Shown: positions 1 through 25,195, counted from the first letter of the stretch. The stretch is DNA of 25,835 nt from an uncultured bacterium (GCA_965612865.1 CBFDTJ010000013.1:1-25835); one strand, 5' to 3'. The notes: generated from the sequence alone by a model not told the origin. Translations and numbers: made by a program.

Positions 1-3000
1 GATAATAAGTAGTTTTTGTAGATACATATAAATCCTCTCCTTCCTGATATTTTGGACTTCCTGCTTCTAATTCACTTACTGGTGCGGTGTTATCCAGATA
101 ATATGTTGCCCGCTTTGTAAGCTCTGTATTTCCTATTACATCAACACTGTAATAATCCACATAATAAATTCCATCTTCTCCTACTATTGTAAATGTTCCT
201 TCATATATTTCCCAGCTGCTTTCTGCTATCTGCTTGCTGCTTACTCTGTACCATGTCTTATCCACTCCCAGCCCTATCCCATCCCCTACTTCTACCAGGT
301 CATCTACTGCAGTCAAAGTTATTGGTGTTTCAGAAGTTATATAAGTTGAACCATCAACAACATAATCCGGTTCCCCATGAGAAATTGTTGTCCGTGGGGG
401 CTGTATATCCCAGATTACTTCAAATCTTCCACTTGAAACTTCACTCCTATGTCCTGCCCAGTCCTCTGCTTCTATCTTCAGTACATAAAATCCATAGGTG
501 GGTAAATCCAGCGGCTCTATCTTATCCACTAACTTTACATAATACTTCTCTCCAATCTTACTTTCATCTTCTGCTTCTACTACTTCTAAATAAGCAGTAT
601 ATTCATAAGGTCCCGCATCGGTAATATTAAATGAGATTTCTATTAAATTCTTTTTAGCAATAAATTCCTCTCCCCCTTTTGGAGATATAATTGTGATTTC
701 TGGTGGACTGTCATCAAGATAAACTTTTAATACTTTCTCCTCTTCTTTATTTTCCACATTATCTATTGAATAATAAGTAATCAAATGCTCTCCTTCTTCT
801 CTTTTTATATCTTCAATTCCATATAAACTGAAATAATCAAATTTTGCCGGAATACTTTGAGATGTAAAATCCTCTCCATTTGTTGCTCCTAATCCTGCTT
901 TTAAATTACTCTCCAAAAACTCATATTCTCCTATCTTACTCCAGTTCAGACCGTCTGTGGAGTAATAGAAGTTATAATTTCCCTTTTTCTTAACTTTAAG
1001 ATAAATAAAATCAACATTAATCCAGTTTATATCATTTACAATCTCTTCGTATTCACCATTTACTTCCTTACCAGCTATAATTTTCTTTCCATTTTCATAA
1101 CCTTTTACAAGTTTCAAGTAATTATCATCATCTTGATAAATATATATCCCTGCTTCCTGCCCTTTTATCCGGGGAGAAAACTCTAACTTTGTCTCTACTG
1201 CCCAACTTTCTTCGGAATATAGTGTGCTCCTTAAAAGGATATTTTGTTGATTATTATTAACTTCTTTTAAACTACCATAATCAGTATAAATTATAAGGAA
1301 TTCTCTCTCTTCCCTTAACGTCCAATTCTCATTATTTTCTCTTAACCACTCCCACTCAGAAGAGAGTTCTTGCAGATTGAATTCATCCTTCCAGGAAGTT
1401 CGTTTCCTTTCTCCCAGAATAAAAGAACCCACATAGATTTCATCAAAACCATAATCCAGACGATAAAAAGTTTGTTTGATGCCACTGAGATTATCTCTTG
1501 CCTTAATTAAAAATGGAGTGTATGAGGTAAGTAAAAATTTCTCCTGCCATTCAAGATGAGGAGAACCCGGTTTGAGAATACTCAAAGGAGGCGATGTATC
1601 CAACACCACCTCAAGAGTATGAATCTCTTCTTCATTTCCTACCACATCCACACTATGATATTCTATCTTATGTACTCCTTCCTTTGAAAGGTTGAAAGGA
1701 GCAGTATAAATTGATACCGTACCATTGTCAATTCGATAATAGGTTCTGTCCACTCCCAGCCCTTCTCCATCACCTACAGTAAGTAAATCATCCTCTGCTT
1801 TTAACGTAAAAAGAGTGGTTCTATTTACAAAAACCGGCTCTTCCCAGTATTTAGGAGTTGAAATCTGAATTTCTGTTCTGGGGGGAAGTAAATCATGTAT
1901 CACCTCAAACGTCCCGGAAGTGGAAATAATCTGATTAAATGCCCAGTCTCTTGCTTTCACATAAAGTTGCCAGAAACCATAATCAAGATCTCCAGGTTCA
2001 ATCTCTTCCCCTAAATTTACCGCTACTGTAGTTCCTTTTTCCAGATGTTTCAACCAGGCATAACCAGTAGGATATGGGTCAAGATTATCCTTTATTAAAT
2101 AATCTATTTTAATTTTATCCAAAGTGGCAATATACCTTTCCCCTTCGCGTGGACTCTCTATGGTAATCTCCGGAGGTGTATAATCAATAATAAATCTTCC
2201 AGAAGTGTCAATAGACTTATTTCCAGCTAAATCTTCCATTTTGACCCAGATTACAGTTTCTCCTTCTGGATCCTCTTTTGTTACAATATACCGATAATGA
2301 TAAGGAGAAGAGTGACTGACAAAAGTAGCTGGTCTACTATTAATTAACACTTCAGGATTCCGGAGTAAATCTTCTGATACCAGAAAGTATATATCCACTT
2401 CCTCTAACGAAACAACATCTGGAAATGTAAGAATTCTTATTACCTCAGGTGGTGTGGTATCAATTAGAACTTTATATATCTTTTCTTTTTCTTGATTCAA
2501 AACATTATCTATAGCATAATATTTTATTTGATAGACTCCTTCCTCATTAAATGAAAAAGAAGAAATATATTCTTCATATGGCAAATCATTGATGCTAAAG
2601 AATATTTCTTTTACTCCACTCAGACTATCTGTGCTCTGGAAAGCAAAAAAGTCCATGTTGTTAGCATAATCCTTTTCTCCATCATTATAAAGCAAACGAG
2701 AAGCAAAGAGATGAGTTTCAGGTGGAGTCCTATCAAGAATCACTGTGCTGGACTTAAAAATTTCAATATTTTCCAAATAATCTTCCGTCCAGAAATCAAC
2801 TCGATAAGAGCCTTCTTCTCCTTCTATCCTGAATGGAAATTCATAAAGTTGCCAATCCCCCTGATTTATACGGTAAAAACTTGCTTCTACACCACAGGGA
2901 TAAATCCCCTGATCTCGAGAAATAATCGTCAGTTCTGTATGAGAAGAAATGTAATTTTTATACCGCGGCATCCCAATTTCCAGAAAGGATACAGGTTCAC

Positions 3001-6000
3001 TATTATCAACTGTCAATTTACAGATATCTACTGAAGATTGATTGCCAAGATTATCACAAGCTCTAACTTTCAGTTCATAACTCCCTTCTTCATTTAAACT
3101 GAAAGCCTTTTGATACTCCTGCCAGGACCCTTCATCTATCTGATACTCAATTCTCCTTATCCCTGAACCTTCACCATCATCTGCCCTGAGGGAAATATGC
3201 GTGTAAGAAGAAATCCAGTTTCTACTGGCAATATAATACGGTGGAGAAAATGAAATTTCTACATCCGGGGGTGTACAATCAAGATACAGAGTAATACTAC
3301 CTGAAAAAACATTTTCCACTTTATCTTCGGCTCGATATTCAATTATTCTTTCTCCATCATCTCCAGTTAAGGTTATTGGCTGAGTGTATTTCCGCCATTC
3401 TCCACCTTCAATCCGATACTCCAGTTTTTCTAGTCCCGCTGGAATTACTCCTTTATCCTGGCTATAAAGATTCACCTCTGTTTTAGAGGTAATATAATTC
3501 TCATATTGCGGCTCTCCCAATCCAACCAATACCACCGGAGGAGTGGTATCAACAATAATTACCCTGGAATGGATACTTTCTTCATTCCCTAAATAATCTA
3601 TTCCATACCATTCTACAGTAACAACTCCCTCTTCAGCAAGTTTTACAGGAACAGTATAAACTTTCCACTCGCCTCCTCCAATACGATATTTTATTTCTTT
3701 TAAACCCGAACCAGCGTCTTCTCCAACAAAAGCAAGAGAAGTACGGGTGGAAATATAAACATTGGATAAATCTTCATACCGGGGCTCACCCACAACCAGA
3801 TCGGTCCGGGGTGGAACTGTATCCAGAGAAATATTTAAAGTGCGGGTAGACTCAAGGTTGCCCACAAAATCCTTGCTTCGATAGAGTAGCTTCTCAATAT
3901 CTTCTGAATCTATTCTAAACTCTCTCACATATACATACCAGTTCTCTCCCTGATCCAGTGAATATTCTGTTTTCCAGACTCCTGCTCCTGAACCATCATC
4001 GCTTACAAAATAAAATAGTGTATGTGTGGTGACATAAACAACATTATCTTTAACATATTGTGGGCCTCTCATCTCCACCGAAGTCGTTGGAGGAGTTCCA
4101 TCAAGATATATCTGATATTCTCTTATTTCTTCCTCATTACCCGCTCTATCCACAGCATGATACTGAATTATATGCTCTCCTTCTTCAGAAATGAAAAAAG
4201 GCTCTTTGTAAATAGTTATGGGCCCTGCATCTACCATATACTCTATATAACTGACTCCTGAAAGATTATCTGTAGCAGTAACAACAAAAGAAGAAGTTAT
4301 CACCGCATACTTTCTATCTTCCTTAATAAAAACTGGCTCTGTCAAACTAATTTCAGATATTGGAGGAATATCGTCAGGAATAGTGATCACAAAAACTTTA
4401 TCTGAGGGAGCACTTTCATTTCCAGCTTTATCCACAGCAGTAATCCAATAAGACTGAACTATCCCCGCCACCGCTTCAGTATCATAATAAACCGTAAACT
4501 TATATGGCTTTTGATTTAATTTTTCACCATCTCTATAAATATAATAACCCGCTAAGTCCTCTTCTGTATTGGGCTGCCAGAAAAGTTTCACTGTATTTAT
4601 ATTTAACACTTCGTATCCTAAACCGGCAGGCGCTTGAGGCGGGATTTCATCAACTCTGATTGTTACTCTCTTTATCTCTTCTTGATTGCCAAATATATCT
4701 TCACTGTAATAAGAAATTTCATATTTGTCCTTAACCTGCTCTGAACCCCGCAAAATTACCTGTTTCAAAACAGGACTCACATTGTTGTCTTCTGTAACAA
4801 AAACAACCTTATATTGAATATACCTTCCTGGAGGAGAGGTGATTTTTGCTCCTGTCTGAGTATATGGGGAAGACCAGTCTGACCAGGTTGAATCAGGCTG
4901 AGAAGCATTTCCGGTGCGGGTGTAAAAAGTAAGTGAAGTACCCGGAGGAACCTCACTCTCCCATTCAATATTTTCCCATGTGACTAAAGCTCCAGCATCA
5001 AAAATTGTAGATATAAATTCACCACTGGTAACATACGTTTCTGGAATCACATCTACAAAAATTTCTCCACCAGCCCCTTCCAGAATCATCCACTCACTCC
5101 CATCCCAGCGGGTTTTTATAAGATCACCGTAACTCCTTATATAAAGATAATCATTCAGTGTGTCATAAAAAACTGACATAGGACAAAGATACTCCTTTCC
5201 ATCCGGTCTTTTATCCATTACCTCCCAAATGGTACCACTCATATTGGTCTTTACTACTCTGAAGTTAAATCTATCAGCTACATATATCACATCCTCCTCA
5301 GGATCATAGGATACATCCATAGGAGAAGCAAATTCTCCTATTCCTTCTCCATACTTACCAAGAGTCTTCCATCCAGAACCATCTATTTTTGTTCTCACGA
5401 TACGGTGATTACCATAATCAGCCACATAGATAAATCCTGTGTTTGGGTCATAATCTATCCCTTTAGGAGAGTTAAACCCACCAAGAAAATTAGTTGCATA
5501 TCCTCCTATCTTGCGTTTGGCTATCCGCCCATACCTTTCTTCTGCAACATAATAATATCCTCCAGCAACGTCAACATCTAAACCTGTGGGTTGATGTATA
5601 TAAAAGATCCTATATACCCTTCTATTTTTATATCTATAAACATAGTTTCTACCATAGTCACTCAGATAAAAATAACCACTATTGCGGTCATAATAAATGC
5701 CATAAAGATTATAGAAATCCCAGGGCTCAGTATAGGTCTTCCATTCACTACCATCCATTTTACAACGGATAATTTTATTCCCTTTGGCGACGTATACAGT
5801 AGAAAGATTTTGAGACAATGTGATTTTATCTCCTTTAAGAAAAGTATTACTAAACTCCCCGGATTGCCAGTCCTTCATATCAGAAATGACAGATGGAACA
5901 ATCTTCTTTACCTGAAAATATAATGGGGAAGTATAACTCTGCCACTCTCCTCCATCTATTTGAAAACGGGTAACCTTCACTTCTATATTATCGGTGGGAA

Positions 6001-9000
6001 CAAATCCTACCGGAGTAAGAGAAGATATCCAGATCCCTTCTTTTTCATACCATGGGCCATAAACTGCAATCTCTGTGACCGGAGCAACAGTATCAAAAGA
6101 AACTTCGAAAGATTTTATAATTTCCTCATTTCCCACATTATCGATACTTCTGTATTCAAATAAATATACATCCTGTGTAACACTAACAGGATCAGAGTAT
6201 ACATGCCATTCTCCTCCATTTAATCGATACAAAATCTGGTTTACCCCGGAAGCATATGTATCTTTATAAATATCCTGTGCCTGAATGGAAACCTTTGTAT
6301 TCTTATTGAGATAAACTTTATCATCTATCCGGTAATAAGTACCCGTAAAATACACCATTGATTCAGGGGGTGTGGTATCAACATAAACAGTAAACACCTT
6401 TTCTGATTCCCAGTTTCCTGCTTTGTCCACTGCTCTGTATCTTATGGTATGCAATCCTTCTTCAGTAAAAGTTATTGATGTGGTATAAACAATATAACCC
6501 ATCTCATCAATATTAACTTCTATATAATCCACCCCGGAAAGAGTATCTTTTGATTCAAGCCAGTAATAAAAATTCAAAGGAGCATAATTTATTCCATCTC
6601 GATTATATAGATCTCCACTTGTCTTAACCACAGTTACCGGAGGTTGTGTATCCTTAATTTCCACAGTAACTATGGCAGGTTCACTTTCATTACCCACCAG
6701 GTCAAAAGCGGTAATTTTATATTCATGTCTCCCTAAAGATACATTTTTATCAGTTATATGTTCTATATCAGCAGATACTGTTCTGATCCTTTCACCATCA
6801 CGGTAAATATAATATCCACCAAGATCTCTCTCCTGATTTTTTATCCAGCTAAGAGATACATCATCTACTCCCCAGATACTTCCCCTGAAATTTCTCACTT
6901 TTGCAGGTGGTTCATTATCTAAAAATACTTCAGTCGACTGCTCTGCCTCTGTATTTCCCCAGTAATCTTTGCTGAAATATCTTATTTCTGTTAAAGGAAT
7001 CACCTTCAACCTAACTTCTTCAAGCTGTGGAGGAGAATCTCCTTCAACAAAAAATTCGGCTTTGATCTGGATATACCTCTCCAGGGGGCAAATAGCTCTC
7101 TCCCCCTGTGAACTATAGAGTTCTGACCAGTCACTCCAGGAATAATCTGGAACCGGAGTATTACCTGTCCTTATTCTTAACCCAACAATACCCGGAGAAG
7201 CTGACCAATAAATATAACGACAGAGTACTTCTTCACCGACATCTATTACTTCTGACAGAGACTCTCCACTAACACTTGCTTTACCCTGAGTAAACATGAT
7301 ACCTCTTGGCCGGGAAACATTTGCTATTACCTGCCAGATACTGCCATCTATCTTTGTCTTTACAATTCTATCATTGTAATAATCCGACACATACAATTCA
7401 TCTGTATCCGGATCAACGGCTATATCATAAGGACAATAAAATTGCCCGGGACCTCCTCTCCCCCACTTTCCATAAGTCTGCCATATACTACCATCCATTT
7501 TTGTCTTCACAATATAACATCCCCAGTAATTGGTTAGATATATTGAGCCATCTCGGGGATTGTAATCCAGACCATACATGTCTTTCAATTTATAATTGTA
7601 ATAATAAGAATACCCGGAACCGTCAGGATTCATCTTATAAATTCTTCTGTATCCACGATCAAGAACATAAAGTTTATTCTCCTCAGGATCATAATCAATA
7701 TCTATTCCATTATTCAGTGCCCAGTAATAGAGACTCTCATAATTCCACCACTCACCAAATTTCTGCTTCCTTATATAATCGGAATAAAGAATATACATAT
7801 TTTCTTCCTGATCAACTGCTATAGAACGTATCCCGGAATGATGTTCATATTGAAAATTACTTCCATCCGGAAGCATTCTTCTTACATAATAACTAGCATC
7901 AGCTACATAAATATAATTCCCATCGTACCAGACTCTGTTAGCTCCCCAGAATTTACCCGAAGCAATTTCAGTTTTTTCACTCCCATCTGTCTTCATCCTT
8001 ACAATTCTATCCGGAAGTGCCACATATAACCATTTCTCTGGCTCTCTATACTCAAGATTTGCAATCTCAAAATTTTTTATTTTCAAAGTATATGGCTTCT
8101 TACTACTGGTGATGGTAAAAACTGCTTTGGTTCCTGCAACTATATTCCACTCATCATCGAAAGCATAATGAATCTCTTTCACTCCAGAAAGATCATCACT
8201 TGTTTCTATTGTAAATGGAGTATTCAAACCCACTATATTACCGGTAAGAACTGGTTTGCCAATAATTAAATTACTAACAGGAGAAGTATTATCTTCCCAG
8301 GAAATGTTTATCCTGCCACTTGTATCCATTCCTTCGTTATCAACAAGATCCTTCCCTTTTATAGTAATAGTGTAAACTCCGGGCAAATCCTGTGGAGTTA
8401 CCTGATATTTATAATGATATCGCCGGATCTCACTATCATAGGTAACATACTGAGCTCTTTTCTCTCCCACATAAACTTCTGGTGGTTCTTTTAAATCTTC
8501 AGAAACAAGAAAAAGTATGGTTGCTTCTTCCAGTCCTACTTCTGGCCATGGATAAACCAATACACCACTAAAAACCGGAGGAGTGGTATCAACTCTGAAT
8601 TCCTTACCTGTAAATATCTCCCCTTTATTACCCAATCTATCCACTGCATAAGCAGATACAATATAACTTCCTTCCTGAGTAAAATAAATAGGATGCTCAT
8701 ATTCCTTCCACTCTCCCTGATTTACAGAGTAATAAATTATATCCACTCCAGAAGCTACTCCTTTCACCTCAGGATCAGTAGCAAGAATTTCAATCGGTGT
8801 TGAAGAACTGATATAAATAACTCCCTCTCGTTCATAACCGGGATATCCTGCTTTAACCTCACATACAGGCCCCGTAGCATCAGTATAAACTTTTCTATCT
8901 TTTATCTCTTCTTTATTTCCATATCTATCCTGACTATAAAATTCTATAAGATTTATCCCTTCTTCAAGAATAAATGGTTTTGAATACAAAATCCATTCGC

Positions 9001-12000
9001 CATTATTAATCCTGTAAAAAGTTTTTTCCACTCCTGAAGGAATATATTCTCCCCACGGGTCAACAGCAATGAACTTTATTTTTGTATCCCGGGAAGCATA
9101 ATGTCCATCAGATGTAGGATACTGTTTTCCATCCACAAATTCCAGTTCAGTAATCGGCGGGGTACTATCTCTTCCAGCTTTTACTCCTATACAGTTAGAT
9201 ATTCCTGACCAGTTACCTGCCTCATCCTGTAAACGCAAAGCAAAATAGTATGTTAAACCGGAAGTTAAACCAGAAACAACAATTCTCTCAATCTGGCCGG
9301 GAACTGTATCTGTATCCCACAAAAGCTCATAGGGAGCTATCTCCCATTCACCATCATTTAAGATTTCTTTCATATCTGAATACTTCAACCAGTATTTTCC
9401 TCCTATAATATTCCCCTGTATCCCATTATCTCCAGTCGCCCTCCAGGAAAGAACCACATTTCCTTCATCAGAGGCAATTGCCTGTAAATCAGATATAGAA
9501 GCCGGAGGAATCTCATCCAGAGGTATACCACTTGCAGGGAAAGACTTTGGTCCTTCTCGCAATTTAGAATCAAAAGCAGCCACTCTGAAGAAGTATTTCT
9601 TTCCATCAATTAAATCTGTAATATAACACTGATTACTATCAGCAGATTGAGTGGCTATTAATCTATATCCTCCCACTTTCTGAGTACTCATATATATTCT
9701 ATACCCTGCTACTCCCCCGCTTACTTTCTGCCAGGTTATAACCAGCGCCTTCCCCACTCCCGGATTTCTGACTTCCACATTCTCAACCCGTACCAGAACC
9801 GGCATCCCCACCAGGATGCCATCACTGCTTCCTACCGCACTTATGAGGTTACCTCTATTTATGGTTATCACATCAAAATAGTATCTCTTTCCAGCTTCCA
9901 GATTCAAATTCTGGAGGAAAACACTCTGTTCTTCTCCAACAGAAGTCCAGTTTTTTACAATATTATAATCCTCTAAAATAGGCGCTTTGTAAATTGCATA
10001 TTTTTCACCTTCTCCATCGTATCCATCAATTAAATAAATATCCTTCCCTCTTACCACCACATCATGAAAATATCTTCCTCCGGGTAAATAATCCACCTGC
10101 CAGTCTTCAAGTGAACCGTCTCCTCTGATTCTCGCATAGTATATCCTGTTACTTACTTCGTTTGTATCCAGATTATACCCGCCAAATATATAAAGCACAT
10201 CCCGCCAGGTAAACATTGTATGAGCCCATAATCTTTCCGGTAATTGTGGACCTTCTATCCACTCACCGGTTATATCCCCTGTTACAGGGTCAATTTCTGC
10301 AAAAAATATTCTATCTTCTTCAAGAATATAAATTTTATCACCAAATCCTGCAGCATACCGATAATAACCGGTCTGAGGCAAACTTATCCCGCTTATCACC
10401 CACTCTCCTATACTCCCATCTTCATTGATAGGCGCGGAAAAATAAATCCTGTATTCGGGATAAACTTCTGTTACCGGCCAACCGTAAACCTCCTCTGTCT
10501 CTGTATATAAACCTCCGGTAACATAGATTCTATTGGAAAAAATAAATGCAGAACTTTCGTAAAGTGTTTCTACCGGTAGAGGAGAGGCAGTCTGCCAGTT
10601 TTTAATCTCTCCGGTAAGAGGATCAGGCTTTGTATAATATACTTTATTGGTGTAATAACCGGCAATAAGATAAATATATCCCCTGTAACTCAAAGCAGAA
10701 AAACGACTCATCTTCTCAGGAACATCCAGGGTTCTTTTCCAGGTATCAGGATTTATCAAACCATCGGATTGAATTCTGTTAAAATCAACTCTCACCAGTT
10801 CCTCATTATCAGCATACCTCTCTGCGCCTATTATGTAGATAAAGTCATTACAGATGACCGCTTTTACTTCCTCTCTTAAGGGTGGCAAATGATATCCTGT
10901 TAATGTCCACTTTCCTATTCCACGTGGAATTATGGAATATATACGAAATTGATTATCCATTATTCCACTTCCAGGATATGGATCAAAAGAATACCACTGA
11001 CAGTATAACTCATCCGTGGAAGGAGTAAAATCTCCCTCATCTTCCACAACCGGCATTGTGGGAGGAGTATTATCCACAATATATTCGTATTCGACTCTTA
11101 CTGGAATTTCTGCTTCTGCTGTATTGCCAAAAAGATCCGTTGCTTTTATCCTGATCCTATACTCACCTTGAGGAACAATTCTTCCTCTATCATCCAGCCC
11201 ATTCCAGACCACTTCATTTACTCCTTTTTCCCCTCTCAAATCCTCAAAAATTGTTCTGATACACTCATTCTCATTGTTGAAAACCCTAACCGAAAGCCAG
11301 GGAATGTATTCTGATTCATTATCGGCCAGATGAAAGGTTATGGTTGAAACCTCATTTATTCCGTCTCTATTGGGTGAAAATTCAGCAGGAGTAGCAACTA
11401 AATTACTGATTACCGGAGGTTCTTCATCTACTACATTTAAGAGGGCAAAAACTCCCGGTTTTTCCACTTCTCCAACAATACGATGATTATATTTATCTAC
11501 AAATTGATAAGAAACTTTTATCCATTTATTTTCTTCATTATCAAAACGATAAATTCTCAAAGCTCCTCCATATTTGTCATCGGTATAAGGTATATCAATA
11601 CAATAAGGATGTTCCCGAGTAAAACTTAAATTTTCCGGAGTATATCTATAAAGATTTGACTCTAAATAAACATACTCACCCAGATCAGAAAGAGCTTTCC
11701 ACATTTCTTCGGGAATTTCCTTCTCCGGTATTTCTTCACATTGAATTTCTCCCCATTCTACCGGCTTCTCCAACCAGTCAATAATACTAATAACAGACTT
11801 TGAATTGCCCATTAAATAAGGGAATTCCCTCCTTCTTGCCTGAATTTCAAATTTAAAAATCCCCGGTGAAGGCACCACCCCTTCCGGCAAAGTGACCTTA
11901 TACCAGGTCCTGCTTTTACCTTCCTCATACTCCTGCCATCCGGAATCATAAAGAAGAATATCATCCCTGCCTTTCAGGATTATGTTATGTGACTCAAGAA

Positions 12001-15000
12001 TCTTCTCTTTTTCGTATTCTGGAAAAACACCTGAAATTCTATAAACAATTCCTGCCCCTATCTCATTTTCCTCTGGATAATACTCCTGCTCCTGCCAGCT
12101 TAAATCATAAAATATTTCAATATAAGGTATCCCTGTATCAATCCTGACTTTAAACTCTTTACTGTGAAATTGATCGGGATTGGTAAGACTCACTCCACTT
12201 ATTACTCCTTTATATACTCCAGAAACAAAACCTTCTCCGTTCCATTCCACACAGTTTATCCCACCACGAGATTTAAAATCTGAAATTACAGGATGACCTT
12301 CAATATTAATGTTGATTCTACCCTCTTCTGTTGTATTGAAGAAGATTACTGTTTTCTCACCATAATATGGATTAAATGTCGCCGGATCAACACCTGCACA
12401 GGTAATTCTAAAGGGAACATTATCTACTTTTACATTTAATGAAACAACAGCAGATATATTCCCTGCTCTATCCACGGCCTTCACACTTATAGTATGTACT
12501 CCCTCTTTTTCTCTTTTTGTCTGCCATTTATAAACGAAATATTCTCCCTCTTTATTTTCGTTTACGCTCCGTGTGGAACCATCAATTATAAACCAGACTT
12601 TCTCTATTCCAGAACCATCATCTTTTGCCTCAACTCTTATCTCCACTTCTCTACTTACAACTTCGCCCTCAGAAGGAGTTAAAATTCTGACCGAAGGAGA
12701 CCTGGTATCAAGTAAAATGCTTTTACTTACCGCAACACTCTTCTTCCCTTCAAGATCTTCCACCTGGACATAAACTGTTTTTAAACCATCTTCTTCACTC
12801 AATAAAAATGGAAGTTCATAATAAAGTGGTTGCCAGGATGCACCCAGGAGCTCTGAATTTTCTGAAACTCTTACCTGTGTACAAAAATCAGAGGATTTTA
12901 TCCTTATTTTTATATTCCTCTCATTGGTATATTTCTCTGAATCAGTATCTCTATCAAGCAATTTCAAGGAGACAACCTCTGGCAAAGGCAGATTTACCTT
13001 AATTCCTTTTGAAGTCATAATTTCACTCCAGCGTCCTGCACCATTTCTGGCCTTCACTTTAAAATAATAACTTTCTCCCGGTATTAAACCCTCACCAGAG
13101 ACAGAAACACTTCCTACCCTGCTCTCCTGCCAGTTAACCAGATTTTCATCTCCAGAACTTATCCCTGTATAAAATATATCCCTTTTCTTTCCTTCATTAT
13201 TTTCTCCACCAAAAAGAAAAATTTTATCACCCAGAACCAGAGTTTTTATTCCTTTCATCGGTTCAGGAAGAAGTGTTGTTTCCTTCCAGTCTCCAATATT
13301 TCCATTCTCATCTATCTCTGCAAAAATCACTTTGTCCATAAGATTTTCCTCTTCTCCTCCTATAACATAAATCTTATTTCCGGCAACAACCACTGAATAA
13401 CTCTTCAGGAAAGAAACCGGAAGTAACCCAACCTCTTCCCAGCCCTTTCTTAAACTTCCATCCTCAAGAACTTCCCCTCTATATACCTTATTACTCCAGG
13501 GATATCCTCCCACTATATAAATGAAATTACGATATACCCCTGCACCAAAATTTTTCAAAACATCCTGTGGTAGATTATCTATCATTATCCAGTATTTTAT
13601 CTCACCATCAGGAGAGGGCCTTGTCCAGTAAACTTCTCTATTACTTCCCCCAAGAATATAAATCCTATCCCGACATACAACCGCCACATGGCCAGATTTA
13701 CTCGCAGGAAGTGCGGTGGTTTCTCTCCAGTCAGTAATTCTTCCATCAAGTTCTGGAACCGTATAATAAACTTTATTTACAGGATATCCATTTATATCTC
13801 TACCACCAAACAAATAAATCTTGCCTGCATAGGAAATAGCTGCAGCATCATATATCTTTCCATCCAGAGGTTCTTGCTTTTCAAAATAAAAATTCCAGAT
13901 GTTATTCGTTTCTTTTAATTCTCCTTTATACACCTCTTGCGTATTATATCCACCAAGAAGATATACACATTCCTTCCTGCCTGTAAAATGCCTTACTACA
14001 GAAAATCCCCAGTTTATATCCTGTGGAATATCAGAAGCAATCTCTGTCCAGATTCCTATCCTCCCATCAGAAAGAACTTTTGAGTGATAAAAAATATTAT
14101 CGACTTTTAAATATATATCGTTTTCTAAAACTGCTAATTTTCCATTCGCTATTCCATCAGGTAAAGAAACTGTGGGATGCCATATACTTAAATGTCCGGT
14201 AGATGAGTCAATCTCTGTGTAAAACACCTGGTTACTTTTCTTCCATTCCTTATTATAACCACCAAAGACATATATCTTGTCATTAATAACCGTTGCTACA
14301 GATTGTGCTCTTTCTTCTGGTAGAGGAATGGTTCTATTCCAGAATGATAAATCTCCTGTTTCTGAATCCACATAAGCAAAATAAACATCTTTTCTCCACT
14401 TCCATTCTCCATCTATACCACCAATAACGTAAATTCTATTGTCCTTTACCGCAAAGGAATGATATTGCAGAGGGGAAAAGAGTTTTCCTGCCTTCCAGGG
14501 AGTGGAAATAGAACCATCCTGATTTATTCTTGCATAAAAAATATCATCACTTACCTTATACTCTCCATTTTCTCTTTTTAATCCTCCCAGAATATAAATC
14601 CATCCATTTGAAATACTTACTGAAAATCTTGAAATATCTTCCACAGGTAAAGGCTCCACCTCCTGCCAATAAGAGATATTACCTCCAGAGTCAACTTTTC
14701 CATAATAAACTCTCTTTCCTTCAACTCTATAAGCATAGCCGTTATAAACATTGAAGAAACAAACTCCCTCAGGCTGGGTATAACTTTTTTCCCAGCTTCC
14801 CAGATATCCTCCACCATTCATTCCCACAGCATACTCATAACTATCAATTCCGCTTTCAGGGTCCTGAGAAGAGAAGTTTGCTATCAGAGCCTCTCCAGAA
14901 TTTACTCTATCCTTTTCCACCTCTATCAACGGAACTTCCGGTGGAGTTCCATCGTATCTTAAAATAATACTGGCATTATTCCTGTAATCCACATTTCCTG

Positions 15001-18000
15001 CTCTATCCTTAAGCCAGAGGTATAAAGGATTCTCACCATGTAGAAATGTTCTTGCTGTAAAGGGTTTTTCTTCTGTATAAACTCCATCTTCATTATTTTC
15101 CGGTGGAGTTCCCACTTTCCAGTAAGCTCCTTTTATTCCAGAAAAATCAACAGGATTCTTCCAGTCAATGACATATACTCCATCACATTTCCAGCTGGCT
15201 TCTTTCCTTCCATCTGCTGTCAAATCACCGGGTGAAGCAGGAGCTTTTTCATCCACAGTTGGACTCAAGAAATAATACGAAAAACAACTTATTGGTGCTG
15301 TAATGGTGTTATTTACCACATCTATCGTGGCATTCTCCAGCGCCTCCCATTTTTTCTCTTCAAAAACATAGTGATATATCTTTATTGTCTCTGTACTCTC
15401 TTCAATCCTTTCTCCGGTCTTTTCATCCAGTGGAAGATCTTCTTCTCTATATCTCATTGTCAAATACGCATTATAAAAGCCCGGTGGTGGTTCATTGAAC
15501 TTTAATGTGGGTTTAAATTCATATACATAACCTCCAATAACAAAATAGTCTCCTTCCGGTGGATTATCAGCAATATCTTTAAAAGTAGTGGTGGAAATTG
15601 GTGTTATGGTTATATATTGAGTGGTGTCATACCAGCCATTTTTTAATTCAACCTGAACATTTCCCCATGGGTCTTTAACTATCCCTCCTGAAGGATGAAC
15701 CTCCGTTCCTATCAATACCGTAATCGTATCTTTTACAACTTCATTAACGATTAATCTTACATAATATTTTCCATTAAATCCCGTAACATCCCAGAAACCA
15801 AGATAATCTTCTTCCAGTACCGGTATATCTGATTCTTTTATCAAATACCATGTGACCTTATCAGTTGAATATTCCACCCGATAATAGCTGACATCTGTTC
15901 CTGTTACAAAAGGCGCCCATCCTTTTATAGGAATATAAACATGTCCCGACTTAACCTCTGGATTTAACCTTACAGTAAAAGTATCAGCATTTACATTTAA
16001 AAGTAAAAAGTCATCCTTTGTATCATCTCCATTCCATTCAAAAATATATTCAGGGTTATTTTGTTCTGTATCCGGGTAGAATGGGCCCTCTATCATCCAG
16101 GAACTCCTCCGTCTATAACTTGTCCAGATATCACCTTCTATTTCTGGCCAGATCTGAATTCTCTTCACCTCATCAGGTGATGAAAGATAATTATAGCCAC
16201 TTTTTCCAATATCAAATACACCACCAAAAGTAGTTGTTGCTTTTAAATTAAAAAATAGAGATTTCCTCTCTTGGTTTATTCTTATATTCTCTACTTTTAT
16301 ATTTATATCCTCTGGATATTGATAGGCTATATCAACATTCCCACTAATTATCTCTCCTTGTGGGGAACTACCATCTCCTCTTTTTAACAAAATTTCAATA
16401 TTTCCCCGTTCATAAATAGAGTTGTTACTCACATATTGATCTTTATACTCCTTTTCCCCTGTAAGTATATATTCTGTCCAATAATTTACCCAAATATTTG
16501 CTGCTCCATAGGAAATATCTTCACCAAAAATTTCATAAGTAGCTCCATCTGCCCATAACCAGAATTGAGTTTCTCCCGCAGGAACCTCAAAGTAAAATGT
16601 CTCTTCTCCCCAACTAGGAAAAACATAACCCCACCATTCTGTATCACCAATATTAACCCACTCTCCAGCAGAAATATCTTTTATTTTTTTATAATAGTAA
16701 TTTTCTCCTATAACTGCCCAAAGTATATACATTGTTGTGGGACGATTAAACATTATCCCAGCAAAACAATTATCTTCCCATTTAGCTCTAACTTTTACAA
16801 ATTGGTTTCTTGAGTATCTTATTAAAATGGGACCTTTACCTACCCCTCCTTGACCTTCTTTACTATGATGCTCTTCTTCCTCTTTTTCTTCTATTCCGCT
16901 TACTATTATCTTATAATCAAACTTCCTGTAATCCTCTCCTTCTCCTCTCTGCCTCCAAGAAAACCATAATCCTCCTTCTGCGTTGTTATCTGGAAATTCC
17001 ACTAACTCAGGTGGGTGGGGCAGAACTGCTGGGTATGTGCTTATATTGCTTTCATTTCCAACATTATCAATTGCATAAAAGTAAATATGATGAACTCCAG
17101 AACTTAATCCAAGTAAAAACTGCTCTCTTACTTCATCCGCTTCATAACTTACCCAATCTCCATCATCTATCTTTACTTTTATCTCCTTCACCCCACTTTC
17201 ATTGTCTGTTGCTGTTATCCTGTAATAATAATCCTCATATACATAACCCTTATCTATCTTCCCTTCTACAATTATTTTTACATCTGGAGGAGTTCCATCT
17301 ACATTTATCTCCATCTCAATTTCTCTTGATTTATTTCCTGCAAAATCTATAGCGTAATAACTGATTCTATGTGTTCCTGATGAAAAAGTTAAAGGCTGAG
17401 TATATAAAAGATAATCCACATCTGTCTCTGTCTTATAGTAAATTCTATCTTTATCAGTTAATCCAATAAAGTCATTCTCAAGACAAAACTCTGTCTCTGG
17501 AGAATACCATGCTTTTACTTCCACTGCTTTTGTGCTTATACTTATTACCTGTGAAACTACTCCTGCAGTCCCTTCTTGAGGTAATTCTGTTGTTGCTACA
17601 GGAATTGTATCTATTACTACATAATACTCTCCGCTTGCTGGATTTCCTGCCATGTCTTTCCCTGTTATGATTATTTTTGTTAGACCATTTGGCGTATTTC
17701 CATCAATTATCAAACTTCCTGTATATTTTATTCTGTCTGTTATGTCCCGATATAAACTCTCTAAAATTCCTTTTGCTTCAACCTCAAAATTTAATTCCTC
17801 CATCTGTTCGCTCGTTCCTACCTCTATTTCACTAACCCCTAAGGGTATCCAGTATCTCTCATTCTCATCTTTGTTTAATTCAATACCTGCACTTGTTATT
17901 GTCATTGTTGTAATTTCAGGGGTTTTATCGTTATCAACTATAATTTCTAATTCTGCTGTTGCTTGATGATTATCCACATCTGAAATATTTACTGTTAAAG

Positions 18001-20167: not shown

Positions 20168-21771
20168 TCCTTACTTTTTCCTTCTTCAAGTTTTTTCAAT
20201 ACCTCTGGATGAATGATTGGGAATCTTCTTAGTATCCTCTCTTTTCCCCGGATTAATGTTCCACCTCCAAAACCATCTTTTACTTCAATATACCATCTAT
20301 CTTTAACATAGGAGAGGTGCCCCATCAAATTGTGCTTCACTTCAAATTCAACTAACTCCATCTCAATCCTTGTCCCCATCCGTATATCAATATGATCTTT
20401 TATTTTCCTCTCAATCCTTTTAAGTTCTTTTAGCGCATGCTTATTTAATCCTCTTTCTTTAGCTGTCTCTCTAATTTCTCGTACTTTCTCTCTTAAATAC
20501 TTTAACATCTTCTTCTGCTGCTTTACTTCCTGTGGAATCTTTTTTTCTTCTATTATCGCTTTCTTTTTCTCTCTCAATTTTTCTAAAACCTTCCTCTGTT
20601 TTTTCAAAAATTCTTTTGCTCCTTTCACAGTGAATATATATTTCTCTACTTTCCCTTCATATTCTGTTGTTATAAATATCTTACTTCCATCCTCACTAAA
20701 TTTCATTTCTTTTACAGGGCAAACCACTATACTACTGCCACTCTTCAATCTTTTCCATCTCCATACATATCCTTCTATCGGAAGCATAATACTTCCAATC
20801 TTTTTTCCTGTTTTTACTTCATATATATCTATAAATGGCTTAATGAAATCTTCTAAATGAAAGGATAACTCTCTCTTTGATAATTTATCTTCACTAACTC
20901 CCATAATCCTGTAGTATTCTTTTACTAATTCTCTAGTTGGAAGATTTTTCCTTAATTCATCACTCTCAAAATGAGGAGGGCGTCGTAGAGCAGCTAAATA
21001 TTTTTCATCCGGACTATAACTTATCGCTCTACTCTTACAGATAAGCTTTTCTGCTTTGATACTAAAAACTATATAGGTTATTTTACCTTTCCTCTTTTCT
21101 TTGCCTATCATTAATTTCAGTTTTGGTGAAAATTCTAATGTATCTTTCTCTCCACCAAGAAAATGTCCTTCATATTCCATCTCTGAAACTAACTTACCTT
21201 TTTTGTTAATAACCAAAATATTAATAATCAATGGTGGAGGAACTAATTCCTGGGGATACAATACCAAACCTACTAATTCTCCTTGTTTAGAAATTCCTGC
21301 ACTTCCACTTGGATATCTCCCATATCGCTCTTTAAACCATTTAAGACTTTTTTCCCAAAGCACCTTAAGATTAACATTATCAAAAAGAATTATTTTTTCA
21401 TCTTCTGAATATCCACTAGGTCCCCAGGGCCTAATAAGAGTACAACTTTTATCCTCTGAAATGTAAATTCTAACATCCTCACATTCTTTTATAATTTTAC
21501 CGGTATTTTTATCAAACAATTTAAAATATTTTGCTTCATCAGCATATATCTTTTCTATCTTTAAATTTCTTGCAATTATTTCCTCCCTTTGAGGATTCAT
21601 TAATGCTTCTTCATATGCCTTGTATGCTTCAATATCAAAATTAGTCTTCTTTTGTGATGGAGAACCTGTCTTTCTCTCCTTTGCCACTTCACTTGTCTGT
21701 TCAGGTATCTCTTTCTTCTCAGCATAAACCGTCATCACAAAAATAAATAAAATCAAAATTATCTTCCTCAC
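20164..21771 (-). CDS. Secreted hypothetical protein with WD40/YVTN-like propeller repeats and a K/E-rich coiled-coil segment
   Basis: 535-aa ORF with GTG start preceded by GAGGAGG. Signal peptide MRKIILILFIFVMTVYA. Blade-like motifs KLFDKNTGKII, ILFDNVNLKVLW, LEFSPK, ISYSPDEKYLA, IDIYEVKTGKKI, MKFSEDGSKIFI. ATGA overlap with the giant gene. Confidence 0.8.
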   Translation of the reverse strand: MRKIILILFIFVMTVYAEKKEIPEQTSEVAKERKTGSPSQKKTNFDIEAYKAYEEALMNPQREEIIARNLKIEKIYADEAKYFKLFDKNTGKIIKECEDVRIYISEDKSCTLIRPWGPSGYSEDEKIILFDNVNLKVLWEKSLKWFKERYGRYPSGSAGISKQGELVGLVLYPQELVPPPLIINILVINKKGKLVSEMEYEGHFLGGEKDTLEFSPKLKLMIGKEKRKGKITYIVFSIKAEKLICKSRAISYSPDEKYLAALRRPPHFESDELRKNLPTRELVKEYYRIMGVSEDKLSKRELSFHLEDFIKPFIDIYEVKTGKKIGSIMLPIEGYVWRWKRLKSGSSIVVCPVKEMKFSEDGSKIFITTEYEGKVEKYIFTVKGAKEFLKKQRKVLEKLREKKKAIIEEKKIPQEVKQQKKMLKYLREKVREIRETAKERGLNKHALKELKRIERKIKDHIDIRMGTRIEMELVEFEVKHNLMGHLSYVKDRWYIEVKDGFGGGTLIRGKERILRRFPIIHPEVLKKLEEGKSKE

Positions 21772-22073: not shown

Positions 22074-22877
22074 TTAAAATTTAAATCCCGACGGGAAAAA
22101 GGTTAATTTTACTTTTTTCTGTATAATGCCAAATCTATTTTTGGGAGAAAATAAATAACGTCCTTTTTCTTCAGGTTTTCCTTCTAAATATAGGACAACA
22201 TCTACCAGATGTTCAAGTAGTGAGGGGCCGGTGATTTTACCTGATTTGGTTAAATGTGAGATTAAAATTATGGCTAACTCTTTACTTCTTGCAAGGGATA
22301 TTACTTCTAAGGTTATTGCTTTTAACTGACTGTAACTTCCTGGAAGGGCATTTACTCTTTCATCATAAAGCCGATTAATGGAATCGAGAATAAGTAATTT
22401 AGGGTTGAGTTTGAGAGTATAATCTATAATCTCTGTTAATTCAGTTTTTGTGAACAGATAAAGATATTTTTCTCTTATTTTTAATCTTTTTATTTTTAGA
22501 TTTAATTGTTTTATTGTTTCTTCGGAAGAGATATAGAGTGTAAAACCATATTTTTGGGAAAATCTTGCTCCTAATTGTAAGGCAAGGGTGGATTTTCCTA
22601 TGCCATGTTTTCCTCCTAAAAGAATTACACTTCCTGAATAAATTCCTCCTCCAAGGAGATTATCTAAAGATTTTATTTTTAATGGATAAAATTTTACTCT
22701 TTCGGTTTTTAAATGGGTAATTACTTCTGGTTTTTCTTCTTCATCAAAGGTTATTAAATCCAGCGGTAATTCTTTGATATGTCCTCTCATTTTACAATAG
22801 GGACAGAAGAGGGGTTTTTTACCAGAGGAAGTGGAAGATAACTTTCTACCACAGGAAGAGCAGATGTATTTTAACAT
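22074..22877 (-). CDS. radA: RadA/Sms-like ATPase lacking the C-terminal Lon-like domain
   Basis: N-terminal C4 finger (CSSC-x15-CPYC), LDNLLGGG, Walker A GKHGIGKST, YISSEE, Walker B LLILDSI, GP..LEHLVDVV and the KNRFG signature. Only 267 aa. Confidence 0.8.
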   Translation of the reverse strand: MLKYICSSCGRKLSSTSSGKKPLFCPYCKMRGHIKELPLDLITFDEEEKPEVITHLKTERVKFYPLKIKSLDNLLGGGIYSGSVILLGGKHGIGKSTLALQLGARFSQKYGFTLYISSEETIKQLNLKIKRLKIREKYLYLFTKTELTEIIDYTLKLNPKLLILDSINRLYDERVNALPGSYSQLKAITLEVISLARSKELAIILISHLTKSGKITGPSLLEHLVDVVLYLEGKPEEKGRYLFSPKNRFGIIQKKVKLTFFPSGFKF

Positions 22878-22879
22878 AG

Positions 22880-23605
22880 TTAGAAGGGTGAAGGTCGCTC
22901 CGCTGAAGGTTGGAGTTCTCTCAGTCTTAAATAGTATTTACCATTTATATCTACATAAAAGTCCATCTGATATTTTTTGCCAGGGTCAATTGGAATAAGA
23001 ATTATACGGTTTTCAGTCTGAGGTGTTTGTTTTTCGGTTTTTAAAGGTTCTGGTTGATAGGGATATTTCTTTATCTGCCAATAGGAGAGGATTTTTTCTT
23101 CTTCTGGTCTTTCTCTTATCTCTTTTCTCCAGTATTCTTTTTTTATTATTTTTACCTGTGGGAATAGCATTATTTTCGCAAGTCCTTTATCAAGAAGAAT
23201 TTTATTAAGGCATTTTTTGTCATTATTGTAAAAAATTAATCCAAGAATTCTATTATATGGGTCAATAGGATAATCTTTTTGATAGATTATTGTTACTGTT
23301 CTATTTAAAATCTCCCTTTCTACAAACTCTTTTGCTTTTATTCCTTCTTCTGTTGGTAGTTCAGGAGTATCTATTCCTAAAAGACGGATTTTTCTTCCTT
23401 TTTTGTCAATTAATGTATCTCCATCTATTACTCTTACTATTTTTGTGGTGTATTTCTTATGGGGAGTACTCAAGTCAAGGAAAGGGAAATTGCTTTCTGC
23501 ATAAAGAGAAAGAAGAAATGTAATAGATAGAAGTACGCTTCGCTGAAGGTAGAAGAATTGCTTTTTAGCCTTTAACCTTGTCACTTTATCTTTGCTACTT
23601 TTCAT
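22880..23605 (-). CDS. Thermonuclease (staphylococcal nuclease, SNase) family protein, probably exported
   Basis: VIDGDT, IRLLGIDTPE, D.Y.RILG and LNKILLDKGLA motifs. Hydrophobic stretch SVLLSITFLLSLYA near the N-terminus. Confidence 0.88.
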   Translation of the reverse strand: MKSSKDKVTRLKAKKQFFYLQRSVLLSITFLLSLYAESNFPFLDLSTPHKKYTTKIVRVIDGDTLIDKKGRKIRLLGIDTPELPTEEGIKAKEFVEREILNRTVTIIYQKDYPIDPYNRILGLIFYNNDKKCLNKILLDKGLAKIMLFPQVKIIKKEYWRKEIRERPEEEKILSYWQIKKYPYQPEPLKTEKQTPQTENRIILIPIDPGKKYQMDFYVDINGKYYLRLRELQPSAERPSPF

Positions 23606-24608
23606 CTGCTATTACTTTATTTCTTTCTTCTTTCGCTTTTAAGAGTGCTAAATCTGCTTTCCTTACCAGTTCTTCAGCTGTCATGCCTATCTTATACTCG
23701 GCTACTCCTATTGATAAAGTAACCCTAATCTCTTTCTCTGGCTCACTACTTACTGCTATCTGTTTACTTATCTTTATCCTTTCTTCTACTTCTTTCCTCA
23801 ATCTCTCTGCAATGGATACTCCTTGTTTTACATCAACATCTAAAAGTATTATACTGAACTCCTCTCCTCCCCATCTTGCTATTATGTCTTTATCACGAAA
23901 ATGCTCCTTAAATAATTTTGCTATTTCTATTAAAATCTCATTTCCTTTCTGATGACCAAATGTATCATTTATTCTTTTGAAGTGGTCAAGATCAATCATA
24001 AGAAGAGAAAATTTTCTCTTTTCTCTCTTTGCTTTATCAATTAAATCATCTAATCTTTCTTCAAAATACCATCTTGTAAGAAGCCGTGTTAAACTGTCAT
24101 ATCTTGTCATGTTTTTTAACTTTAAATTGACCAGAACCTGTGCTGTTATTCCAGGAAAGATGTCAAATAACAGTGGTGCTTGTTTTATTCCATTTCTCAT
24201 TTTTATCACTATCATTCCAATGGTATTTTCCTGATAGATTATGGGGATATAGAGAAAGCTATTTTTATAGATTACTTTCTTCTTCTGAATGTATTTTTCT
24301 GCTTCTTTTTTTATTTCTTCTCTTTCTTCTGATATCTCTCCCTGTTCTTTTATTTCTTCCAATTTTCCTTCTTTAACACAGAATAATAAACAATATTCTC
24401 CTGAGCTTGCTTTTAGATAAATCCTGCATATCAGGGTTAATAATTTATCTTTTTGTCTTAAGGTTGTTACTTTTTGTGAAAGGTCTTTAATAAGATTTAA
24501 GTCTTTTTTGAAAATCTGTTGCTGTTTCTGGTATTTTTTCTTTAAGTGGAGATGTCTTAAAAATAGAAATATGAAAAAAAGAAATATTATTGAGAAGAGA
24601 ACTATCAT
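23595..24608 (-). CDS. Membrane-anchored GAF-like + GGDEF diguanylate cyclase
   Basis: N-terminal TM helix; GAF-like region (LYIPIIYQENTIGMI); DSLT.L, MIDLDHFKRINDTFGHQKGN, RDKD (RxxD I-site), RWGGEEF, TLSIGVA, AD.AL..AK...RN. Confidence 0.92.
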   Translation of the reverse strand: MIVLFSIIFLFFIFLFLRHLHLKKKYQKQQQIFKKDLNLIKDLSQKVTTLRQKDKLLTLICRIYLKASSGEYCLLFCVKEGKLEEIKEQGEISEEREEIKKEAEKYIQKKKVIYKNSFLYIPIIYQENTIGMIVIKMRNGIKQAPLLFDIFPGITAQVLVNLKLKNMTRYDSLTRLLTRWYFEERLDDLIDKAKREKRKFSLLMIDLDHFKRINDTFGHQKGNEILIEIAKLFKEHFRDKDIIARWGGEEFSIILLDVDVKQGVSIAERLRKEVEERIKISKQIAVSSEPEKEIRVTLSIGVAEYKIGMTAEELVRKADLALLKAKEERNKVIADEK

Positions 24609-25195
24609 CTCAATCCTTTTTTTATTGCGATATAGGTTAGAATTGGATAAATTATGTATTTAAAAAGTTTTATGTTCTCTTCTATCTCTTTAATTGTTCT
24701 TGCTGAACTTTTATATGGTATGTAAATCATATCTCCGTATTGAAGTTGATAATCTATTCTATTTTCAAAAATGTCTGATAATTCAAACTCTCTCCATTCT
24801 CCATCCTGATAGATGTAAATTAATCCCTCTGCTTTCTCTGAGATTCCTCCTGAAAGTGCAATAATTTCAGCAATGGTCCCCTGGGGATATTTTCCGGGTT
24901 TTATCACCTCTTTGTCTCCTAATATAATGACTGATTCTTCTGTAGGCTTTATTGAGATTATGTCTACTTCTGGGTGATATACTCTTTTTAAATACTCTTC
25001 TGCTTCTTTTAATGTTTTTCCTGACAATTTCAATTCACCAAATCCTGGTAAATATATGTTTCCATCTGGTAAAACATTAAATTCTCTTTCCTTCTCTTTT
25101 AAGGATATTTTGATTACATCTCCTGGTGAAATTGTGTAAGGATATAATAGATTACTTACAAACATTATAAGTGTTATAATCTTCAATTCTTTCAC
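24605..25195 (-). CDS. Polysaccharide export (Wza/Poly_export) + SLBB domain protein, short form
   Basis: YTISPGDVIKI, VLPDGNIYLPGFGELKLSGKTLKEAE, VIKPGKY, EIIALSGG, LQYGDMIYIP and a C-terminal hydrophobic/amphipathic helix. Confidence 0.8.
   Translation of the reverse strand: MKELKIITLIMFVSNLLYPYTISPGDVIKISLKEKEREFNVLPDGNIYLPGFGELKLSGKTLKEAEEYLKRVYHPEVDIISIKPTEESVIILGDKEVIKPGKYPQGTIAEIIALSGGISEKAEGLIYIYQDGEWREFELSDIFENRIDYQLQYGDMIYIPYKSSARTIKEIEENIKLFKYIIYPILTYIAIKKGLR

Follow-up and report, generated by a model that had tools for sequence, protein, structure and literature searches.

Are the accessory domains of a giant surface protein placed between the domains of its stalk, or inside them? 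The question is raised by a stretch of DNA from an uncultured bacterium (GCA_965612865.1, CBFDTJ010000013.1:1-25835; hereafter the window) that has a length of 25,835 nucleotides (nt) and corresponds to an entire contig (C13) of a genome of 1.42 Mb distributed in 111 contigs (G000). It contains a giant open reading frame (ORF) with no stop whose 3' end is truncated by the end of the contig, i.e., the protein must be longer than the 6722 amino acids (aa) encoded here. Residues a..b of this protein correspond to nt 20167-3b+1..20167-3(a-1) of the window. The N-terminus resembles a signal peptide (as judged by eye), and searches against Pfam and NCBIfam identified FN3, PKD and M23 peptidase domains N-terminally, two Kelch blocks, two NHL blocks, one ConA-like domain of the GH43_C2/DUF1349 type and a stalk of OmpL47-type repeats. 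In nested domains generally, the passenger has adjacent N- and C-termini and occupies a loop at the surface of its host. A preliminary description of the window had proposed that five accessory modules interrupt stalk domains instead of sitting between them, and this is what we have found. There are five nested cases (Table 1), three of them recognized by complementary half-matches to two profiles (the OmpL47-type hosts) and two by an alignment that spans the junction left after deletion of the insert (the FN3-like hosts of the Kelch blocks). The region delimited in that description has one of its limits (14953) exactly at the first base of the first Kelch host, and the other (722) falls inside the last half-domain and not at its border. 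We think it quite probable that the gene product is a giant Sec-exported protein of the cell surface, fibre-like and constructed on a plan of split domain plus passenger.

The Ig-like stalk repeat, of about 100 aa, corresponds to the NCBIfam family NF047446 (OmpL47-type beta-barrel domain, named after Leptospira OmpL47), with scores of 131 bits over 3 stretches and, in the second protein half, 683.6 bits over 14 stretches (cut-off 40). We used a hidden Markov model (HMM) trained on the 15 uninterrupted repeats of the giant protein, whose consensus is GxWxxYxxPFxxxEEGxxxIxYxAxDxxGNxE. At each of the three split copies the HMM matched twice, at both sides of the insert and with complementary parts of the model. 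Residues 3958–4007 and 4393–4420 around NHL module 1 correspond to HMM positions 4–58 and 73–100, residues 4690–4752 and 5147–5176 around NHL module 2 to positions 3–68 and 71–100, and residues 6188–6253 and 6455–6488 around the ConA-like domain to positions 3–69 and 68–100. The same picture was obtained with NF047446, which covered profile positions 5–36, 17–39 and 9–28 in the N-terminal halves and 45–66, 43–68 and 41–67 in the C-terminal halves, while an intact repeat used as control matched positions 8–66 with 74.4 bits. The split halves score under the NF047446 cut-off, as expected since each of them is only half a domain.

When the inserts were deleted in silico, as the preliminary description had suggested, the joined halves matched the HMM of uninterrupted repeats end to end and in one single match each: positions 2–100 with 77.8 bits for the host of NHL module 2, 2–100 with 77.4 bits for the host of the ConA-like domain and 4–100 with 43.3 bits for the host of NHL module 1 (the intact repeats reach 90–118 bits, but the HMM was trained on them). 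In MAFFT alignments all of the 15 intact repeats bridged the ConA-like insert with a single gap of 203–205 columns, opposite residues 6252/3 to 6455/6. Both NHL modules were bridged likewise in a run with four repeats. In the run with 15 repeats these likewise extended over the two halves, with the first long gap at residue 4007 (14/15 repeats) in module 1 and at 4752/3 (15/15) in module 2; since the remaining gap was fragmented there, with odd gap lengths in module 2, the four-repeat run was used instead. The chain leaves the OmpL47-type host at the hairpin directly before the last two strands. The breakpoints along the HMM thus agree with the earlier proposal that the two NHL plus sandwich modules and the ConA-like domain split the repeat in one loop, and the motifs by which this loop had been described match the repeat consensus.

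The ConA-like unit was also modelled with AlphaFold2 (AF2), from an alignment made up of a second copy of the unit found on contig C59 of the same genome and the 15 intact repeats. The two host halves were predicted with a very high local confidence (pLDDT of 93–97 for model residues 1–66 and 92–98 for residues 271–300), and exactly two strands (274–284 and 293–299) follow the insert. The insert itself had a low confidence (pLDDT of 26–47) because the alignment contains only two sequences over it; ConA-like homologues were added to the folding alignment and then dropped, as MAFFT dragged them onto the host columns. Once the insert was trimmed, the model superposed on single Ig/PKD/FN3-like domains over 82–92 aligned residues, among them 4l9d_A (82/82 residues, root-mean-square deviation 2.1 A, Z 8.7), the SiiE adhesin domain 2yn3_A (Z 9.0) and 2c4x_A (Z 9.3). 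The superposed residues exceed either half and, therefore, the two halves form one sandwich in the model.

The passengers of these hosts belong to two unrelated types. The NHL inserts consist of a linker, an NHL propeller (assigned by profile to PF01436, 56.3 bits vs. a cut-off of 20) and a small sandwich, which in module 2 had no Pfam family. Both modules are paralogues, with 29% identity over 396 aa (E 1.9e-36). The third insert is predicted to be a ConA-like domain of the GH43_C2/DUF1349 type by its matches to PF17851 (89–94.8 bits vs. 22.7, covering profile positions 1–201 of 203) and PF07081 (37.6 vs. 32.4 bits). The approximately 45 aa found between the N-terminal half of the host and the NHL propeller (residues 4020–4060 in module 1; residues 4753–4800, 5770–5911 on the minus strand, in module 2) resemble the start of the related cassettes of proteins P0185, P0179 and P0189 described below ('W..T.W...F'). 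Judging by eye, this linker might be a strand of the sandwich, in which case the NHL propeller would be nested in the sandwich and this, in turn, in the OmpL47 repeat.

The two Kelch blocks interrupt a different host. The Kelch nature of the passengers is clear from Pfam matches above the cut-offs (PF24681, 151.7 bits vs. 50; Kelch_1, 73.9 vs. 20.1), and Foldseek retrieved for insert 2 the Kelch domains of LZTR1, KLHL12 and Keap1, with E of 1e-13 and weaker and TM(target) of 0.70–0.75. Insert 1 has about double the size of insert 2 and probably contains two propellers; in a BLAST comparison of the two inserts two regions matched. The two host products obtained by deletion of the inserts aligned in one high-scoring segment pair across the junction (positions 1–108 to 2–112, 32.7% identity, E 1.2e-12). 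An HMM of this host found uninterrupted domains in an unrelated database protein, P0080, at residues 1267–1358 (HMM positions 14–109, E 4e-15) and 1815–1916 (positions 2–109, E 3.4e-12), in which a short 'GG-T' turn takes the place of the Kelch inserts. In the distant protein P0121 the same host halves flank a Kelch-like insert of ca. 650 aa, with 25% identity to insert 1 over 584 aa (E 1.7e-29), and the fragment P0158 terminates in Kelch blades followed by the C-terminal half of the host. The exit point, in the same alignment column in both hosts, is a roughly central loop that follows the 'SGI..Y.Y..G' strand and precedes the '..NW' strand. The collinearity with the uninterrupted domains of P0080 supports that the halves of each Kelch host are parts of one domain and, together with P0121, P0158 and the alignment of the deletion products, confirms at the level of sequence the earlier proposal that both Kelch blocks split the same domain type at the same point. 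No Pfam fn3 match was found over the whole domain in the Kelch hosts, only the C-terminal half of the first one giving a match, below the cut-off. For this reason, and since the P0080 domain has no Pfam family either, we refer to the host as FN3-like, i.e., as a family without a Pfam match.

Some points have to be set against this interpretation. In the AF2 model of the second Kelch host with its insert, the host residues (1–47 and 373–427) had a pLDDT below 50, with an alignment of seven sequences only. The structure prediction proposed in the preliminary description has thus produced a confident single sandwich for the ConA-like unit and no verdict on the fold for this one. The uninterrupted P0080 domain had no Pfam match at E<=1, and the comparison by hhalign with the canonical FN3 domains of the giant protein recovered only 26 columns ('YYF.V.A.N..G..S', near the C-terminal end) with a probability of 87.7%. 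Besides, the AF2 fold of the ConA-like host was steered by the alignment of intact repeats and is, therefore, not independent of the sequence evidence, and the Z values of 8–9 obtained with VIA are barely above the background of 7–8 stated for the tool, so that they indicate a common sandwich and no specific relative. Finally, the presence of an M23 peptidase domain makes it possible that the term adhesin is too narrow. The unity of the flanking halves is consequently backed by two profiles, the deletion products and AF2 in the OmpL47-type hosts, and by sequence comparison only in the FN3-like ones.

Is the OmpL47 loop used as an insertion site beyond this protein? Among 1.84 billion cluster representatives, 44,281 matched the profile of intact repeats (E<=1e-3), and we scanned the best 150 of these (1442 intact domains), which are the top of the ranking and not a random draw. 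Inserts of at least 100 aa were detected in 4 of the 150 proteins. Three of them have the insert in the loop described here (HMM positions ca. 59–69): P0026 contains two unnamed inserts of 146–158 aa, and P0028 and P0094 contain one and two inserts, respectively, of 209–231 aa, with a Laminin_G_3 domain (Pfam, 163.6 bits) within one of those of P0094. In the fourth, P0098, a database protein with a type-IX tail, four OmpL47 repeats (residues 1136–2485) are split at another loop (HMM position ca. 42) by four paralogous inserts of 159–170 aa that resemble 3-keto-disaccharide hydrolase, which represents a second socket in the OmpL47 family. P0063 and P0075 have only gaps of 46–49 aa. Judged by these profile matches, the loop used in the giant protein has received passengers of at least four unrelated types in the different proteins, and such inserts affect well below 1% of the domains sampled. 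The idea of reusable sockets advanced in the preliminary description can thus be retained for this loop, with two unrelated insert types here and Laminin_G_3 or unnamed inserts of ca. 150 aa elsewhere, but not in the form of five separate plug-ins (see below). The search with NHL module 2 gave 137 matches at E<=1e-5, and none of the 120 longer proteins examined contained a split OmpL47 domain. Instead, the NHL plus sandwich cassette was un-nested at the N-terminus (residues ca. 20–490) of 13 other proteins, with OmpL47-type repeats downstream in 12 of the 13. In these unnamed metagenome proteins (P0185, P0179, P0189 and 10 others), 27–34% identical over about 280–385 aa, the cassette is terminal, at the tip of the Ig stalk, whereas in the giant protein it is nested inside a repeat. 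The sandwich alone (40–51% identity) is also found behind other propellers in proteins of the peptidase-S55 type. Near-length homologues were too scarce for a survey of sockets: six for the ConA-like module, including the C59 copy, and four for Kelch module 2.

The number of insertion events has to be considered separately. The five modules could be five separate and recent plug-ins that diversify the protein, with the sockets acting as sites of ongoing exchange of cassettes. The finding of different passengers in the same OmpL47 loop within one protein and of the NHL plus sandwich cassette un-nested elsewhere would fit this explanation, as would the scarcity of the passengers among relatives: in 40 relatives there were only NHL-repeat matches to NHL module 2, the Kelch insert was found in none of 92 other genomes of the phylum (E<=1e-8), and the ConA-like insert in one of the 92 (G056), outside any OmpL47 context. 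Similarly, there are 32 OmpL47 matches in G000 vs. 0–2 per genome in 20 relatives. Such absences are weak evidence because repeat-rich genes are often missing from bins. However, the two NHL modules are diverged paralogues; the Kelch composite is also present in P0121 and, as far as the fragment reaches, in P0158, indicating that these units are old; and the ConA-like unit, host included, is duplicated in the different gene on C59 (71% protein and 86% DNA identity). The GC content at third codon positions is 0.26–0.32 in the inserts and 0.23–0.27 in the hosts, with no clear difference and no sign of a recent import. In the 40 relatives and the 92 other genomes of the phylum, the comparison of homologues recommended in the preliminary description yielded no close homologue in which the same host was empty or held another insert. 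The hosts of NHL modules 1 and 2 resemble each other no more than they resemble other repeats, and their pairwise identities do not discriminate between duplication and independent insertion. Overall, the paralogy of the NHL modules, the older Kelch composite and the C59 copy reduce the five modules to about three insertion types, spread as units of host plus insert. The equation of five plug-ins with five events has to be abandoned, and an active swapping of cassettes seems distinctly unlikely to us.

With the nested layout unchanged, the function could also be a different one. The protein might be an enzyme scaffold displayed at the surface, or an attack device, with propellers and ConA-like domain being catalytic or holding the substrate (NHL/SGL lactonase-like, Kelch mutarotase-like and GH43_C2-like are the candidates) and working together with the M23 peptidase. 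The M23 domain scores above its cut-off (Table 1), mutarotase/NanM models match the Kelch part and Arylesterase/ScyF models the NHL part, weakly and below their cut-offs, and the small size of the genome is also in line with this possibility. Nevertheless, the matches to enzyme families are far under the curated cut-offs (e.g., TIGR03548, 63.8 bits vs. 243.2), the combination of a signal peptide, a long Ig-like stalk and lectin-like folds is the plan of fibrillar adhesins, and in related proteins an Ig stalk carries the NHL plus sandwich cassette at its tip. We regard the enzymatic explanation as rather doubtful. The presence of a cell-wall hydrolase on a fibre resembling an adhesin could point either to adhesion to other cells or to an attack on them. 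A further explanation, i.e., that the layout was created by mis-joined repeats in a metagenome bin, is highly improbable. It is true that the genome is fragmented, that the contig ends (window positions 1–424) within a repeat common to C50 (85.7% DNA identity over 427 nt), and that at least four other contigs of G000 (C50, C62, C59 and C111) encode paralogous OmpL47-rich giant proteins (L018, L020, L011 and L019, respectively). Yet the reading frame runs without a stop for 20,166 nt, and the same nested layouts are found in the unrelated proteins P0121, P0094, P0028 and P0026 and on C59. Furthermore, a contig of 16,605 nt from another public record, possibly derived from the same data, shares with the window 7281 nt at 100% identity, a stretch that covers the C-terminal half of Kelch host 1 (12980–13141) and the complete Kelch module 2 and NHL module 1.

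We favor, therefore, the interpretation of a fibre built from split stalk domains and their passengers. In the mechanism that we envisage, the chain would leave a small beta-sandwich stalk domain at one hairpin, fold a complete passenger and return to finish the host. The stalk would keep its end-to-end continuity, and the passengers, which are probably carbohydrate- or protein-binding heads, would hang off it. At least three types of insertion would be involved (Kelch into FN3-like, NHL plus sandwich into OmpL47 and ConA-like into OmpL47); units of host plus insert would have spread whole by duplication, and the OmpL47 loop would have been struck independently by different passengers in different lineages. 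What distinguishes this case from domain insertion in general is the repeated use of a single loop of one repeat family, both in the same protein and in different lineages.

The closest known parallel are the split domains of the repeats-in-toxin (RTX) adhesins, for which the founding paper is said to be that of Graham et al. in 2024. Split Ig-like (BIg) extender domains occur in the type I secreted RTX adhesins MpIBP, FrhA of Vibrio cholerae and AhLap of Aeromonas hydrophila, where they hold ligand-binding domains out from the axis (PMC12077191, PMC10865825). The giant protein shares with what is described there the small beta-sandwich stalk domain interrupted by a complete passenger, the chain returning to finish the host, as well as the lectin-like passengers and the presence of several split domains per protein; a stalk domain split by a complete passenger is found here in five cases, one of them with a host fold modelled confidently. 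The exit of the OmpL47-type hosts just before the last two strands is also that reported for many RTX split extenders (PMC12077191, PMC10865825). By analogy with these adhesins, the passengers of the giant protein may project sideways and the protein may act as an adhesin, presumably anchored at the surface and binding its ligands through the passengers. There are, on the other hand, clear differences. Unlike in RTX adhesins, the hosts are OmpL47-type and FN3-like instead of BIg, the passengers include Kelch and NHL beta-propellers and a two-domain cassette, and the split domains are spread over ca. 4700 aa and not gathered in a C-terminal ligand-binding region. There is no Pfam match to RTX/HemolysinCabind over residues 1–6722, the C-terminus lying beyond the end of the contig. 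Instead of an N-terminal retention module followed by an array of BIg extenders, the N-terminus has the signal peptide-like start, FN3, PKD and the M23 peptidase, and the C-terminal domain of the C50 paralogue is Por_Secre_tail-like, in place of a beta-roll or type I secretion signal. A full-text search of the collection of papers used here revealed none joining split domains, beta-propellers and adhesins, and the titles and opening lines of abstracts of the OmpL47 papers listed (10 of 17), all on Leptospira or another pathogen, contain no description of split OmpL47 domains.

The split-domain design itself has already been published for RTX adhesins, and no principle is changed by our results. 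They extend the design beyond the type I secreted RTX adhesins to other stalk families, other passengers and a little-studied phylum. In the giant surface proteins of uncultured bacteria, which are mostly unannotated, split stalk domains point to the parts that are probably ligand-binding, and an insertion-tolerant OmpL47 loop is of use to annotation pipelines and, as a natural example, in the choice of permissive loops. One could go further and suppose that the OmpL47 hairpin before the last two strands and the mid-domain loop of the FN3-like host are general insertion-permissive sockets, with binding cassettes (propellers, LamG/ConA jelly-rolls, two-domain units) moving in and out between tip and nested positions, and with the split BIg extenders of RTX adhesins using the same topological place. 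We put this forward tentatively, as a possibility that we would not yet favor. If true, there would be one structural rule for the placement of side arms on the Ig-like stalk domains of any secretion system, and this rule could help to locate binding heads in the tens of thousands of giant proteins that lack annotation, as well as to design display scaffolds.

Table 1. Split hosts, inserts and other features of the giant ORF, with their positions in the window and in the protein.
Feature	Position (nt)	Strand	Residues (aa)	Evidence and remarks
Giant ORF	2..20167	-		6722 aa
Peptidase_M23 domain	18479-18754	-	472-563	Pfam 46.5 bits vs. cut-off 28.7; HxxxD and HxH motifs by eye
Kelch host 1, N-half of FN3-like domain	14783..14953	-	1739-1795	Deletion-product alignment, HMM
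Kelch insert 1	13142..14782	-	1796-2342	ca. 547 aa; Pfam Kelch families
Kelch host 1, C-half	12980..13141	-	2343-2396	Pfam fn3 positions 47-82 of 84, E 5.2e-5, 23.8 bits vs. cut-off 25
Kelch host 2, N-half	10907..11077	-	3031-3087	Deletion-product alignment, HMM
Kelch insert 2, six-bladed Kelch propeller	9962..10906	-	3088-3402	315 aa; AF2 pLDDT about 80-90
Kelch host 2, C-half	9797..9961	-	3403-3457	Deletion-product alignment; 61% identical module end in P0158
OmpL47 host of NHL module 1, N-half	8111..8296	-	3958-4019	Repeat HMM, NF047446, deletion product, MAFFT
NHL module 1 insert	6998..8110	-	4020-4390	Linker, NHL propeller, ca. 95-aa sandwich (about aa 4295-4390); Pfam NHL
OmpL47 host of NHL module 1, C-half	6908..6997	-	4391-4420	Repeat HMM, NF047446, deletion product
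OmpL47 host of NHL module 2, N-half	5912..6100	-	4690-4752	Repeat HMM, NF047446, deletion product, MAFFT
NHL module 2 insert	4730..5911	-	4753-5146	Linker, NHL propeller, sandwich (about aa 5041-5146); Pfam NHL 57.3 bits
OmpL47 host of NHL module 2, C-half	4640..4729	-	5147-5176	Repeat HMM, NF047446, deletion product
OmpL47 host of ConA-like module, N-half	1409..1606	-	6188-6253	HMMs, deletion product, MAFFT, AF2
ConA-like insert, predicted GH43_C2/DUF1349-type	806..1408	-	6254-6454	PF17851, PF07081
OmpL47 host of ConA-like module, C-half (last two strands)	704..805	-	6455-6488	HMMs, deletion product, AF2
Uninterrupted OmpL47-type repeats, seven in tandem (empty sockets)	2450..4381	-	5263-5906	Repeat HMM
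Eight further uninterrupted OmpL47-type repeats	17009-17584, 8579-9172, 6086-6658, 1589-1903, 83-418	-		Repeat HMM

Two other segments of the giant protein deserve mention. The 685 aa ahead of Kelch host 1 (residues 1054–1738; 14954–17008, minus strand) had no Pfam family at E<=0.01, and in the 445 aa ahead of Kelch host 2 (11078–12412, minus strand) FlgD_ig was the sole Pfam match. Upstream of the giant gene and in the same strand there is an ORF of 535 aa (20164–21771, minus strand) that overlaps its start by 4 nt and had no Pfam match. Farther upstream (22074–25725, minus strand) are encoded a KaiC-like ATPase, an SNase-like nuclease, a GGDEF cyclase, a Poly_export protein and an AAA kinase-like protein.

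As for the paralogues, the one on C50 (4837–5988, plus strand) ends in DUF7305 and a Por_Secre_tail/CHU_C-like tail, with 26.4 (cut-off 27) and 23.5 bits, just under the cut-offs. The paralogue on C111 (3–1802, plus strand) has a terminal un-nested NHL propeller and a similar tail recognized by eye only, Pfam giving no such family. Such a tail is of the type-IX-like sorting kind. Finally, the ORF on C62 contains, at residues ca. 200–1830, what appear by eye to be four tandem right-handed beta-helix (NosD-like) units of ca. 410 aa, each followed by 'NNWWG...Y..D', and has OmpL47 repeats at its end.

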